From contig CAWFQK010000001.1 of the NCBI GenBank assembly GCA_963817955.1, positions 256,001 through 320,000 on the forward strand: DNA of 64,000 nucleotides, read 5' to 3'. Below are positions 1,622 through 8,756 of the stretch, in pieces (position 1 is the stretch's first letter; every line of letters starts with the position of its first letter). The DNA is from an uncultured Gemmatimonadaceae bacterium. GTDB lineage: Bacteria; Gemmatimonadota; Gemmatimonadetes; Gemmatimonadales; Gemmatimonadaceae. A model generated the notes under the pieces. The model was not told where the DNA came from, ran no database searches, and saw only the letters and a program-made list of their open reading frames with translations. Made by a program: the position numbers and the translations under genes.

Positions 1622-3292
1622 ATGACTATCAGCCCCAACGCCGGCCAGCCAGCCAGCAATGACATGCTGGTGAACGTGCCGCGTTTGATCACCGCATATT
1701 ACAGCCGACAGCCCGACCCCGATATTCCAGCGCAGCGCGTGTCGTTCGGAACGTCGGGGCATCGCGGAACGGCGAACGACTGTTCGTTCAACGAGCAGCA
1801 CATTCTCGCCATCACTCAGGCGATTTGCGAGCACAGGCGCGGTCAAGGCATCGACGGCCCGCTCTTTCTGGGCATCGATACGCATGCGCTGTCGGAACCA
1901 GCATTTGCTTCGGCGCTGGAGGTGCTCGCGGCGAACGAGGTGGACGTGATGATCGACGATCGCGGCGATTATACGCCGACGCCGGTCGTCTCGCATGCCA
2001 TCCTCACATACAATCGCGGCCGCGCGAATGGGCTGGCCGACGGAATCGTGGTCACCCCATCGCACAATCCGCCCGAGGACGGCGGGTTCAAGTACAACCC
2101 GTCGAATGGTGGACCGGCCGACACGCAGATCACGACGTGGATTCAGGACCGCGCGAATGCGCTGCTCATGGATGGACTGAGAGGCGTGCTCCGCATTCCG
2201 TTCGACCGGGCGAAGCAGGCCGCAACGACACACGCGTACAACTACATGGGTACGTACGTCGGCGATCTCGCCTCGGTCATCGACTTCGACGCCATTCGCG
2301 GCGCCACGTTAACACTCGGTGTGGACCCGCTCGGCGGCTCCGGAGTGCACTACTGGGGAGCGATCGCCGATCGATACAAGATTCCGTTGAGTGTGGTGAG
2401 CGAGGTCGTCGATCCGACGTTTCGCTTCATGACGCTGGATTGGGACGGCAAAATCCGCATGGACTGTTCGTCGCCGTATGCCATGCGACGTCTCATCGGC
2501 ATGAAAGACCAGTTCGACGTCGCATGGGCCTGCGATCCCGATCACGATCGGCATGGCATTGTCGCGCGCGGCGTGGGACTGCTCAATCCAAATCACTATC
2601 TATCGGTGGCCATCGCGTATCTATTCGCGCATCGGCCTGGCTGGCCGGCAAATGCTGGTGTCGGCAAGACGGTGGTGAGCAGCAGCATGATCGATCGCGT
2701 CGCCGATAAGCTCGGTCGTCGACTCGTGGAAGTGCCGGTGGGCTTCAAGTGGTTCGTGGACGGCCTGGTGCATGGCTCGCTTGGTTTTGGCGGCGAGGAG
2801 AGTGCCGGCGCATCGTTCCTCCGCCGCGACGGAACCGTGTGGTCGACGGACAAGGATGGGATCATTCTCGGGCTTCTCTCCGCCGAGATGACCGCCGTCA
2901 TGGGACGCAACCCGGGCGAGTTGTATTGCGACCTCACGCGCGAGCTCGGGGATCCACTCTACGAGCGCATCGACGCACCCGCGACTGTGGCACAGAAGGC
3001 GGTGTTGTCACGCCTGTCGCCGGAACGGGTAGGCGCGACGGAGCTTGCCGGCGAACCGATTCAACAGATGTTGACGAAGGCGCCCGAGAGCGATAATTCG
3101 ATCGGCGGTTTGAAAGTGGTAACGAAGAACGGCTGGTTCGCTGCGCGACCGTCGGGCACGGAGCAGGTATACAAATTGTACGCCGAGAGCTTCAAGGGCG
3201 TCGAGCATCTGCGGCAAATCCAGGCGGAGGCGCAGGAAATTGTCGGGGCGGCGTTCGCCGCCGTTGCACAGAATGCGGTTCCAACATACTGA
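1622..3292 (+). CDS. pgm: Phosphoglucomutase (alpha-D-glucose-1,6-bisphosphate dependent)
   Basis: [14 protein letters not shown] phosphoserine loop, DPDHDR metal loop, GEESAG, RPSGTE. Confidence 0.97.
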
Positions 3293-3320
3293 GACGGCCA
3301 CGTAACGCTTTGCTGCCTCC

Positions 3321-3430
3321 GTTCTGGCCTCAATGCCATTCCGAAGTTCTCTGCTACGAAGGTCAGGGCGTATGTCACGGCTATGAAATCGGACCTCCGC
3401 AACCTCGTAACGGCCGAAGAGGCGTTCTTC
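3321..3430 (+). pseudogene. Start-less inverted fragment of a type IV pilin gene (conserved alpha-helical segment)
   Basis: 3335-3430 reads AIPKFSATKVRAYVTAMKSDLRNLVTAEEAFF and is 79/96 nt identical (hand count) to the reverse complement of 3739-3834. Similarity extends to 3321 (VLAS) across a 1-nt gap. Confidence 0.85.
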
Positions 3431-3450
3431 CGAGCCTACGCGGTTCTACG

Positions 3451-3488
3451 AAAAGAACTCGGGAGCGGCATTGCCGCCCCCGAGTTCT
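3451..3488 (-). terminator. Intrinsic terminator of the pilin gene
   Basis: Minus-strand stem AGAACTCGGG-GCGGC/GCCGC-CCCGAGTTCT followed by a T-run, about 40 nt after the pilin stop. Confidence 0.8.
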
Positions 3489-3528
3489 CCGATTCTTCCT
3501 TTCTTCAAACCAGCAACCAGCGACAACC

Positions 3529-3912
3529 CTACTGACAGATGGGTGCGCCGTCTGGTGCTGTCGCCACGACCGGGTTCGTCGTGTTCATGCCGATGCCGCA
3601 GGTCGTGCCAACGAGCTGCGAGTGCGTCACGGTCGCCGTCCAATACCCGGGCCCGACGACAATCGTCGGAGCGTTGACACCCGTGGACCTTTGGAACTTG
3701 AGTTTGAGTGTGTCCGTGGTGTAGGCCGAGCTGTCGGAGAAGAACGCCTCTTCGGCCGTCGTGAGGCTGTGGAGATCCGATTTCATAGCCGTGACGTACG
3801 CCTTGCCCTTCGTGTTGGCAAACCTCGGGATGGCGATCGCGGCGAGAATGCCGATGATCACCACAACGATCAAGAGCTCGATCAGCGTGAAGCCTTTGCG
3901 CAGCTTGAGCAT
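3529..3912 (-). CDS. Type IV pilin (N-terminal methylation motif)
   Basis: MLKLRKG|FTLIELLIVVVIIGILAAIAIP prepilin cleavage site with E5, C-terminal Cys pair, AAGGA RBS before ATG 3912. Confidence 0.95.
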   Translation of the reverse strand: MLKLRKGFTLIELLIVVVIIGILAAIAIPRFANTKGKAYVTAMKSDLHSLTTAEEAFFSDSSAYTTDTLKLKFQRSTGVNAPTIVVGPGYWTATVTHSQLVGTTCGIGMNTTNPVVATAPDGAPICQ

Positions 3913-3965
3913 GGAATTTTCCTTTGGGAAAGATGGCTGGAGGGAGCTGACGGTTCGCAATTAGG

Positions 3966-3980
3966 GCAATCCGTGAGCCC
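3966..3980 (-). promoter_or_regulatory. Candidate sigma54 (-24/-12) promoter of pilin
   Basis: GGGCTCACGGATTGC: GG-N10-GC with TTGC, 54 nt upstream of the start. Confidence 0.5.
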
Positions 3981-4186: not shown

Positions 4187-4555
4187 ATGTCCGAAGACAG
4201 AAACCACCCCATCACGACCGGCGACGAACGCCTCGAGCGTGACTTGAACCGGCATCGTGGAGATGAACAGCGCCGCGCGCGCGCCGAAGCCTCAATGCGC
4301 CTCCGGGATCGTGGCATCACGATCACCGAGGTTGACGAGATCGACGAGATCGTCAATGTGCTCGAGGCTGTGGAAGCATTCGAGCGGATGGTCGCGGCAA
4401 AGGGCGGCGACCTCATGATTGACACGCCACCGGCGCTCGAGCCGGACAACGCGCAATTCGTTTTGCCGCGACGAGAGTTGGATGAGCTTCTCGGCGACTA
4501 TGCTGCCAGGGTGCGACTCACCACGCGGCAACTCGGCGGAACACACGACGACTGA
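4187..4555 (+). CDS. Hypothetical protein (acidic, 122 aa)
   Basis: GGAG RBS before ATG 4187, coding-like composition, no family recognised. Confidence 0.75.
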   Translation: MSEDRNHPITTGDERLERDLNRHRGDEQRRARAEASMRLRDRGITITEVDEIDEIVNVLEAVEAFERMVAAKGGDLMIDTPPALEPDNAQFVLPRRELDELLGDYAARVRLTTRQLGGTHDD

Positions 4556-5840: not shown

Positions 5841-8756
5841 TCAACGATGGTTGGCCGCAGTTCTCTCGATGGCCGATGCCACCGCGCGTCGGAGCACCGC
5901 AACGTCGAACGGTTTGGCGATCGGCTCTCCAGCGACGTTCGTTGGGGGAACCGTCGCTTCGTCGTGCTCGACCCCGGACATGAGAATAATGGGGATCGTC
6001 GGGTACCTCGGCGCCAGCCAACGCGCAAACTCGTAGCCACCAACGCCACCCGGCATGACGATGTCCGACAGGACGACATCGGGAAGATCTCCGGCATCTG
6101 TGAGGTCGTGGATGAGCCCCATGGCGTCGAGGCCGTTCTCGGACGTCACCACGCGATAGCCGGCGTCCTCTAGCATCCGCCGGATGATCTCACGCACTGT
6201 GTGATCGTCTTCCACTACGAGTACCTGCGCCCCTTCAGCCGCCAGTGACGGCCGAGCACTACCCGCAATTTCCGACGAGGGAACGGGCGCAAGCACGGCA
6301 GCGGGCCAGAAGACCGTGAACGTCGATCCGCCACCGGGAACGCTGGTCACGCGCACCACGCCGCGCGCTTGCTGCACGATTCCGGATACTACGGAGAGCC
6401 CAAGTCCGGTGCCTTCGCTCACGGCCTTGGTGCTGAAGAACGGCTCGAACGCGCGCAGCCGCGTTGCTTCGTCCATACCGACTCCGGTATCGGTCACGGC
6501 GAGCTCGACGTACTCACCAGGCAGGGCATCCGGACCAATGATCGTTCGGACTTGGCCGGGATGTGCGTGTACCGCGCGCGTTCGCACGTGGAGCTCGCCG
6601 CCGTTTGGCATCGCATCACGCGCATTGACCGCGAGATTGAGCAGGACCTGATCGACCTGGCCAGGATCCGCCATGATCGGTGGGAGATGGTCAGTCCGCT
6701 CGATCACCAGGGCGATTGGCGATCCCCCGATCGTCTGCAACATTGGTCGCGCGGCCTCGAGCAGTTCATTCAGGTCAACCGGGCGGGGCTCCACCGGCTG
6801 CTGCCGGCTGAACGCGAGCAGTCGCTTCGACAGCTCGGCGCCACGCTGGCATGCGCGCTCGATCTCCGTCATGTCGGCGACCACGTTCGCGTTGTCGGGT
6901 GCAATGTTCGCACGAGCCATCTGCGCATACGCCGCCACGACAGTCAACAGATTATTGAAGTCGTGGGCGATGCCGCCGGCCAGACGTCCCAGGGCCTCGA
7001 GCCGCTGCGCCTGTGACTGTGCCGCGCCGGCGCGCTTTTCCATCGTGATATCGCGGCCGGCGACGAGTATGTACGTCGTGCCTTCGACCCTCACCGGATG
7101 CGCGGACAGCAACGCATATCGTCGCTCCGCCGGACCGCCCGGCACATGGTGATTGAGGGCGATCTCGAAGCTGTCGACCAAGCCGTGCTCGCGGATCGCC
7201 GCAGCTAGACGCGCCGAGTCGGCCGGATCTGCCCATATGCCGAGCTCCTTCTGCGACCGTCCCACGACCTTCTCGCGTGTGAAGCCGGTGAGCTCGCACC
7301 ACACCTCGTTCACGTCGACGATCAATTCATCGCCGGCGCGGAACAGGCTCAGCGCGTCGTGCGCGGCGTGGAAGGCCGCCTGAAGCAAGTTCGCGGCGCG
7401 GCGCTCGCTCGCCTCGACTTGGCGCAACGCCGTCACGTCGGTCACGATGGCCACCGACCCAACGATCTCTCCGCTCAAGGCGCTGCGAAGAGCGTTGGCG
7501 GTGACAACCAAATCGGCGCGCGTGCCATCGGGCCGGAACCCGCGTGTTTCGTACGCTCCGCCGCGGCCCTTGATGCGCGCCTGCCATTCCGCGCGCCATG
7601 CGTCGACGCTCTCGGGCGCGATGAACTCACTCGCTTGGTGGCCAATGATGTCGTCCACTTCGCGACCGAGAATCTCCGCCATCCTGGAGTTCACGTAGAG
7701 CGTGCGACCGTCCCTATCGACACGCCAGACGCCCTCCGCCGTCGCGGCGATCAGGTTCCAGTAGCGGGCGGCGCCCTCATCGGACGACGTCCGAGCGGCG
7801 CCGAGGAGCAAGCCGGCAATGCTGAGTGAAATGAGGAGAGGTTGCGATGCGTGCACATCGGCATCGGTCACGCCGAGGAGCAGCGATAGCACGATCCACG
7901 CAGTGCCGTAGGCGGCGACCGCGATGGCGGCCCCGCGCACGCCTTCGCGCTGCGCGACCCAGAACACCGGGAGGAAACACAGCAGCCATCCATACCCGGG
8001 AAGCAGAGTTCCCTGATTTCTCCAGAGCCAGATCAGCGAGATGCCTGCGACGCCGGCCAGCACCTGCGCCACACGTTCCCATCGCATCGCGGCACGCGAT
8101 AGTGTGGGGCGCCGCGGTGTTTCGTCGGGCGAGCCCACGTATACGTCGTCCGCCGACTCCTCGATCGGCGCCGCACGCCATTTCCTGTGCGATGGCAGGA
8201 TGACGAAGAGGAGGAGCGGGACAACGATGAAGCCGCCAATCGCGTCGCCGGCGGCGAACATCGCAGCCTGAAGCCACAATGTCCCTGGTGGAGGGGCCGA
8301 AGCACCCAATAGCGGGACGGCGCTCCAGACAGCGGCCGCGATCGCCGCGGCCGCGATCGTGACGATCAACCGTGCAACATTGCGTGGTCGCCACGCTTGC
8401 GGCGCGAGAGGCACCGCGCGCCAGAGCGTGGAGGCCGCCGCAGTATAGATGGCGACGTGGACGGCCGATTGCAGCAGCGTCCCCCACAGGGGGGGCTGGC
8501 GTCCCGGCGGCACCCAGTACACGAGCGTAAACCGTGCGGCGAATAGGAGCGGCGCGGACCACGGTCCGAGAATGAGAAGCATCGCCAGTCCAACTCCGGC
8601 GCTCGGATACCAGGCCATGATGTGCGATCCCGGTTCGCTGGCGGGACGCAGCGCCACATCCAGCACCATGTAGGCACAGATACAGCCGGCGGCTATCGCG
8701 AGGCGTGTCCACGCCGGCAGACTGGCCCCCACCGCCGGCGCTGGCACGCCATTCAC
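5841..8756 (-). CDS. Hybrid sensor histidine kinase (MASE1-like membrane domain, 2 PAS, HisKA/HATPase, REC)
   Basis: Multi-TM N-terminus, LAGGIAHDFNNLL H-box, NLAVNARDAM, FEPFFSTK, GTGLGL, receiver VLVVEDD/DIVMP. Confidence 0.92.
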   Translation of the reverse strand: MNGVPAPAVGASLPAWTRLAIAAGCICAYMVLDVALRPASEPGSHIMAWYPSAGVGLAMLLILGPWSAPLLFAARFTLVYWVPPGRQPPLWGTLLQSAVHVAIYTAAASTLWRAVPLAPQAWRPRNVARLIVTIAAAAIAAAVWSAVPLLGASAPPPGTLWLQAAMFAAGDAIGGFIVVPLLLFVILPSHRKWRAAPIEESADDVYVGSPDETPRRPTLSRAAMRWERVAQVLAGVAGISLIWLWRNQGTLLPGYGWLLCFLPVFWVAQREGVRGAAIAVAAYGTAWIVLSLLLGVTDADVHASQPLLISLSIAGLLLGAARTSSDEGAARYWNLIAATAEGVWRVDRDGRTLYVNSRMAEILGREVDDIIGHQASEFIAPESVDAWRAEWQARIKGRGGAYETRGFRPDGTRADLVVTANALRSALSGEIVGSVAIVTDVTALRQVEASERRAANLLQAAFHAAHDALSLFRAGDELIVDVNEVWCELTGFTREKVVGRSQKELGIWADPADSARLAAAIREHGLVDSFEIALNHHVPGGPAERRYALLSAHPVRVEGTTYILVAGRDITMEKRAGAAQSQAQRLEALGRLAGGIAHDFNNLLTVVAAYAQMARANIAPDNANVVADMTEIERACQRGAELSKRLLAFSRQQPVEPRPVDLNELLEAARPMLQTIGGSPIALVIERTDHLPPIMADPGQVDQVLLNLAVNARDAMPNGGELHVRTRAVHAHPGQVRTIIGPDALPGEYVELAVTDTGVGMDEATRLRAFEPFFSTKAVSEGTGLGLSVVSGIVQQARGVVRVTSVPGGGSTFTVFWPAAVLAPVPSSEIAGSARPSLAAEGAQVLVVEDDHTVREIIRRMLEDAGYRVVTSENGLDAMGLIHDLTDAGDLPDVVLSDIVMPGGVGGYEFARWLAPRYPTIPIILMSGVEHDEATVPPTNVAGEPIAKPFDVAVLRRAVASAIERTAANHR

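Follow-up and report, generated by a model that had tools for sequence, protein, structure and literature searches.

Pilin inversion in Moraxella bovis and M. lacunata involves Piv, an invertase of the IS110/DEDD type encoded at or near the locus. In PMC4073114, the Moraxella-type switch is described as two pilin genes alternated by site-specific inversion. The pilS copies of Neisseria, as presented in PMC6796969, lack the constant 5′ coding region, carry variable regions and number 19 in FA1090. The closest known kind to the sequence described here is more ordinary, namely the gene remnants left by multi-copy families in bacterial genomes. To our knowledge, pilus regulation is unstudied in the phylum Gemmatimonadetes, and a literature search on type IV pili or pilin in this phylum yielded, among the papers listed, nothing on the topic as judged by titles and the opening lines of abstracts.

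Here we analyzed a stretch of 64,000 nucleotides (the window) from the genome of an uncultured soil-type Gemmatimonadaceae bacterium, in which a 116-base piece of a pilin gene lies, reversed, just 3′ of an intact pilin gene. The genome assembly comprises 9 contigs and 4.5 Mb, with an estimated contamination of 4.28%, and the window is located on the 559-kb contig C1. As in Moraxella, pilin coding DNA is flanked here by homologous N-terminal pilin coding segments that run in opposite directions. However, Moraxella has two alternative pilins and Piv, whereas here there is one variable domain, no Piv/IS110-type gene on the contig and arms that are 82% identical. Similarly, it shares with Neisseria pilE/pilS a promoter-less and start-less partial pilin copy near an expressed pilin, but its content is the reverse of that described for pilS: the constant region only, in one copy. 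The likeness to ordinary gene remnants extends further, as the fragment is homologous to a gene family, cut at both ends, frameshifted, devoid of start and promoter, confined to a single lineage and without conserved synteny. It departs from them in lying inverted directly 3′ of an intact paralogue, which places inverted arms of 96 nt on either side of the variable domain and likely terminator, and in the uneven spread of its decay.

The pilin fragment and its surroundings

The phosphoglucomutase gene pgm (1622..3292, + strand; an open reading frame of 556 aa with four PGM_PMM Pfam domains) ends in a TGA stop (3290–3292, + strand) 28 nt 5′ of the fragment. The intact type IV pilin gene A (3529..3912, − strand; an open reading frame of 127 aa, Pfam N_methyl E = 5.9e-9) is convergent with pgm, and the fragment and a hairpin lie in between. 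A sequence-only reading of this DNA had proposed an inverted repeat between the fragment and pilin A, which alignment bore out: the left arm (3335..3430, + strand) and the reverse-complemented right arm (3739..3834, − strand) agree at 79 of 96 nt, and the right arm falls within codons 27–58 of pilin A. The arms are 96 nt each, 82% complementary and spaced 308 nt apart, and, as the same reading held, they bracket both the variable domain and the hairpin, a likely terminator (3454–3488). Ungapped extension past the arms gave agreement at chance level (16 of 57 positions beyond the 5′ end and 22 of 117 beyond the 3′ end).

To delimit the fragment, we used nhmmer with a pilin DNA profile formed from 18 full-length pilin genes, which pilin A matches over positions 1–383. 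With one gap, the homology covers 3321..3436 on the + strand and corresponds to profile positions 64–180 of 384, or residues ~22–60 (E = 3.3e-29, for the small region searched). A search that took in the 4.5-Mb genome and 99 loci recovered the same fragment at E = 3.6e-25, which places its homology far above chance, and tblastn/HMMER matched it to pilin residues 26–60 (E = 9.3e-9). The remnant thus spans the C-terminal half of the pilin N-terminal helix. A 1-nt deletion relative to all pilins (3334..3335, + strand), a gap column present in 0 of 94 relatives' segments, puts the first 14 nt out of frame with the rest. The extent originally given, that of the arms, holds for the ungapped match, but the fragment as a whole is longer and frameshifted near its start. 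Two further features noted by eye, a continuation beyond 3436 after a 9-nt deletion and a short repeat (CGTTCT) at both breakpoints, were unsupported by the profile alignment and were dropped.

Parts that characterize a functional type IV pilin are missing. Homology begins at pilin nt 64, and the fragment is devoid of its own promoter, a leader, the FTLIEL segment (the absence of leader and FTLIEL had been correctly noted from the sequence) and a variable domain. The leader and N-methylation/FTLIE segment, which are absent from the fragment, are present in pilin A. The C-terminal globular (variable) domain is likewise absent, as the match stops at position 180 of 384 and is followed by unique sequence, and a Pfam search of the fragment's 80-aa open frame returned no match. 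The combination that defines a gene remnant, homology together with truncation or frame disruption, is found here in full, with both ends missing, a 1-nt deletion and the E value of 3.6e-25 given above.

The 32 in-frame codons contain no stop, and the open frame runs on to the TGA at 3533–3535 (ORF 3383..3535), just as the first reading had it. The tail of this frame (3431–3535) contains the hairpin. Neither flank of the fragment (3270–3325 and 3425–3535) has another match in the genome or the 99 pilin loci. When the 50-aa ORF (3383–3532) was compared to a large protein collection, limited to proteins of 27–88 aa, there were 17 word candidates, none with E ≤ 0.001. The pgm stop and the fragment's open frame share a reading frame, such that read-through would append 80 residues (3290–3535). 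This match of frames is probably a coincidence, given a 1-in-3 chance and the frequency of long open frames in G+C-rich DNA.

The hairpin is a G+C-rich inverted repeat of 17 bp at 3454..3488, identified by an inverted-repeat search and folding. In its 96-nt context, the region folds at −42.3 kcal/mol (z = −3.89) with a 17-pair stem. On the − strand it is followed by UUUUCG on its 3′ side, so the fold points to a likely terminator of pilin A, although a consensus terminator scan did not call it. A + strand transcript leaving pgm would meet no strong hairpin before it.

Upstream of pilin A, a pattern match identified a sigma-54-like −24/−12 element of the GG-N9-TGC type (3965..3980, − strand), 68 nt from the start of the gene. 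In a count made without a shuffled baseline, 51 of 74 full-length pilins of the family (loci L020–L162) had this pattern, a relaxed one, in the 140 nt on their upstream side. Beyond it lies a divergent hypothetical gene of 122 aa (4187..4555, + strand) with no Pfam family, which served as an anchor for synteny. A large hybrid sensor kinase with MASE1, PAS, HATPase_c and receiver domains is encoded 2 kb from the pilin (5841–8756, − strand). Domain searches of the 23 long ORFs in the window identified no pilus machinery and no recombinase.

Source gene and pattern of decay

The genome contains three close pilins, of which pilin A is in the window. Pilin B, on contig 4, is 83% identical to A in protein and 90% in DNA, with homology limited to the coding sequence, and pilin C, on contig 3, is 48% identical to A. 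Another 11 matches in the genome are other prepilin-type genes that align in their N-terminal part only. Relatives sharing the pilin were almost all metagenome-assembled genomes of Gemmatimonadaceae.

The fragment had been read as a copy of the conserved segment of its own neighbor, and a search for its closest paralogue was among the checks proposed with that reading. Over the 32 in-frame codons, 24 of its residues agree with A and 21 with B, whereas 18 relatives' pilins among 22 compared match it at 26–28. Across 90 distinct pilin segments from relatives, the matches range from 23 to 28 with a median of 26 of 32. At the nucleotide level, identity to these 90 is 67–82 of 96, and the value of 79/96 to A falls within this range. 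At positions 4, 22, 23 and 25, A and B carry shared, lineage-specific residues (R, H, S and T/M), whereas the fragment carries K, R, N and V, the residues of 90, 88, 90 and 88 of the 90 relatives, respectively. Because the fragment is family-typical where A and B are derived, it represents a separate, once-functional pilin and not a copy of A, and K4, R22, N23 and V25 contradict the original reading. The source gene would have split off before A and B gained their shared changes.

The distribution of differences over codon positions agrees with this. Compared to relatives, the fragment differs at first, second and third positions in numbers such as 3/3/12 and 3/3/14 (compared to A, 3/7/7), and this excess at third positions indicates that most of the divergence arose while the fragment was part of a working gene. 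The exact 20- and 21-nt runs shared with A, first noted by the sequence-only reading, are present, but they are not special to the neighboring gene: of 90 distinct pilin segments outside this genome, 9 share exact runs of at least 20 nt with the fragment as well. They are as expected of a conserved segment with 80% identity.

Superimposed on this divergence are 11 states private to the fragment, defined as absent from A, B and C and present in <5% of 94 relatives' segments. These include the 1-nt deletion, TCTGCT at 3350–3355 and AGG at 3365–3367, and would fit later decay. Three replacements affect invariant or nearly invariant residues: S6, where 90 of 90 relatives have A; A7, where 88 of 90 have N; and R11, where 90 of 90 have K. 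A or T is the last base of several private codons (TCT, GCT, TAT and GTA), in line with relaxed selection in a genome rich in G+C.

The private states are unevenly placed. Among 111 alignment columns, 10 states lie in the 47 columns of 3321–3366 and a single one (3409) in the 64 columns of 3367–3431. The binomial p value for this spread is ~0.001 if the states are independent and ~0.05 if each of two clusters is taken as one event. Uniform neutral decay would not lead to such a spread, and the lack of a stop in the 32 in-frame codons likewise speaks against a dead remnant. In addition, two rare synonymous states, GCT (3382) and AAA (3388), each occur in 1–2% of relatives and, of A, B and C, in A only, and both fall inside the 20-nt run. 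These shared states hint that sequence may have been exchanged between the arms. The uneven decay or the shared states could reflect a short gene-conversion patch or a constraint on the 3′ part.

Pilin loci in relatives and the relic explanation

To place the fragment among pilins of the family, we searched 99 relatives' loci (609 kb) and the 4.5-Mb genome with the pilin profile. Of the resulting 130 matches, 123 include the 5′ end of the gene and 6 are cut by contig ends, and the sole internal leaderless piece is this fragment. Leaderless pieces were therefore absent from the 98 relatives' pilin loci, with one in this genome. Pilin arrays in relatives are tandem and on the same strand, with at least two matches in 16 of 98 loci, and pilin matches on opposite strands of these loci occur only at distances of 2.5–3 kb. 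Tandem arrays of 2–3 same-strand pilins are frequent in Gemmatimonadaceae (L089, L091, L096, L147 and others), and several dispersed copies are also found in single genomes. Five of the six pilins cut by contig ends (L108, L129, L152, L159, L160 and L161) are cut within or just after the conserved 5′ segment, which acts as an assembly-breaking repeat in relatives. Several contig-end matches in a separate pilin comparison behave alike.

The arrangement of pgm, fragment and pilin also lacks counterparts. The comparison genomes are species representatives, with one genome for this species. Of 31 genus genomes, 12 (this genome included) yielded the pgm C-terminus, and no pilin lies within ~1.5 kb in 12 relatives' pgm loci. 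Homologues of the hypothetical gene at 4187..4555 were found in 27 of 31 genus genomes, and 28 relatives' loci of this gene had no pilin, pgm or peptidase nearby (one short locus did not re-score). Searching metagenomes for the hypothetical protein added only 2 loci, at 57–59% identity, neither of which has a pilin. A shared pgm–pilin layout, which had been put forward as a check on function, was hence found in none of these loci. The 122-aa protein itself has a different gene neighborhood in every homologue.

Pilin B, by comparison, is in familiar company. It lies on contig 4 (1316861–1317238, L005) and is followed by a second, prepilin-like gene of 129 aa, an arrangement present in 6 of 19 relatives' loci. 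The pilin B locus looks like the ancestral pilin locus. Since B occupies the arrangement usual in relatives, A appears as an orphan copy in a rearranged region.

Taken as a whole, these observations favor decay of a paralogue, which the sequence-only reading had kept as its fallback and which is now the best supported explanation: the fragment is cut at both ends, frameshifted and unique in the genome and 98 relatives' loci. We consider it probable that 3321–3436 is the dead remnant of a formerly separate, family-typical pilin paralogue, without dedicated function. In the history we infer, that paralogue would have shed its promoter, its leader with the first 21 codons and its whole variable domain in rearrangements, and these rearrangements would have joined pgm, an orphan pilin copy and unrelated genes in this lineage. 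As it lies after the pgm stop but ahead of the first strong hairpin, the remnant is probably part of the pgm 3′ untranslated region, in which it would ride passively.

Antisense, recombination and other alternatives

A location within a transcript raises the possibility, which we regard as unlikely, that the fragment has been exapted as an antisense element. The pgm 3′ UTR would carry ~110 nt complementary to codons 22–58 of the pilin A, B and C mRNAs, and duplex formation with RNase III-type cleavage would couple pilin output to pgm expression. On the + strand, the stretch from the pgm stop (3292) to 3454 has neither a hairpin nor a terminator-like site; pgm transcripts thus probably include the fragment and would be antisense to all three pilin mRNAs, to which its complementarity is 79/96 for A, 76/96 for B and 65/96 for C. 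The presence of 1 private change in the 3′ two-thirds compared to 10 in the 5′ third is also what selection on pairing would give. However, the layout is conserved in no relative examined, the fragment has no Rfam family and only a chance-level miRNA match (E = 0.99), and its differences from A and B coincide exactly with the changes that A and B underwent, with no sign of pairing-preserving co-evolution. Predicted duplexes between the pgm 3′ UTR and the pilin mRNAs (RNAduplex, −110.7 to −113.5 kcal/mol) are close to those of shuffled sequences (mean −106.3, s.d. 5.9, best −126.5), a test that is uninformative for long G+C-rich RNAs. If the antisense explanation were true, a pseudogene fragment would have been reused as a trans-acting antisense block in the 3′ UTR of a housekeeping gene.

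It is improbable, though compatible with the geometry, that the arms undergo RecA-type exchange, which would occasionally flip 3431–3738 to an OFF state (a pilin head with a 34-aa non-pilin tail) or leave gene-conversion patches with A. The arms flank the variable domain and the hairpin and share two exact runs, of 20 and 21 nt. Two rare synonymous states (3382 and 3388), common to the fragment and A only among A, B and C and located in the 20-nt run, would fit a conversion patch, but two substitutions in paralogue B could also explain them. Furthermore, the arms are just 82% identical (18% diverged), the exact runs are close to the shortest that allow efficient RecA exchange, runs of at least 20 nt are shared with 9 of 90 unrelated pilins as well, the flipped state yields no alternative pilin and no such layout exists in 98 relatives' pilin loci. 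A true flip would constitute a recombinase-free ON/OFF inversion of a pilin.

These two ideas can be joined in a single scheme, to which we give little credence: the remnant in the pgm 3′ UTR would throttle pilin output, with its preserved 3′ two-thirds (1 private state in 64 columns, against 10 in 47) pairing with the 5′ coding region of the three pilin mRNAs, and the arms may occasionally exchange or flip.

A dedicated, site-specific switch that inverts DNA as in Moraxella (Piv type), or a silent cassette of the pilS type for antigenic variation, is very improbable. All that favors them is a superficial likeness, that of inverted pilin N-terminal segments and a promoter-less, start-less copy. 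A switch would have two alternative segments sharing an expression site, but this locus has a single variable domain and no second one to exchange for it, nor is an invertase nearby. The earlier statement that the window contains no invertase was confirmed for its 23 long ORFs and extends to the whole of contig C1 (559 kb), on which searches for Resolvase, IS110/Piv-type and tyrosine recombinases returned no match. Matches of these kinds do occur in the genome, as the suggestion of a genome-wide search for Piv/IS110 or tyrosine invertases had allowed, but only on contigs 2 and 4: five IS110/Piv-type matches (PF01548; contigs 2 and 4), two Resolvase matches and seven tyrosine-recombinase matches (both contig 4). 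The cassette fares no better, as the fragment consists of constant-region sequence only, in single copy, and without a variable domain it cannot serve as a pilS-like donor.

Lastly, we rejected an assembly artefact, either a fold-back or a chimeric join at a repeated pilin segment of this metagenome-assembled genome, as highly improbable: relatives' assemblies often break in the conserved pilin segment (6 contig-edge matches) and this one has 9 contigs and 4.28% estimated contamination, but a fold-back would be nearly identical to its neighbor instead of 82%, a chimeric join would bring a leader or variable domain on one side, and the fragment is flanked on both sides by unique non-pilin sequence and carries private changes and an indel.

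The dead remnant of a separate pilin paralogue therefore remains the explanation that we prefer, and we infer that it lacks a function. An inverted partial pilin copy, on its own, is no evidence of phase variation. If the fragment is a relic, it would matter little, and its value would be as a record of pilin turnover in Gemmatimonadaceae by duplication, rearrangement and loss.
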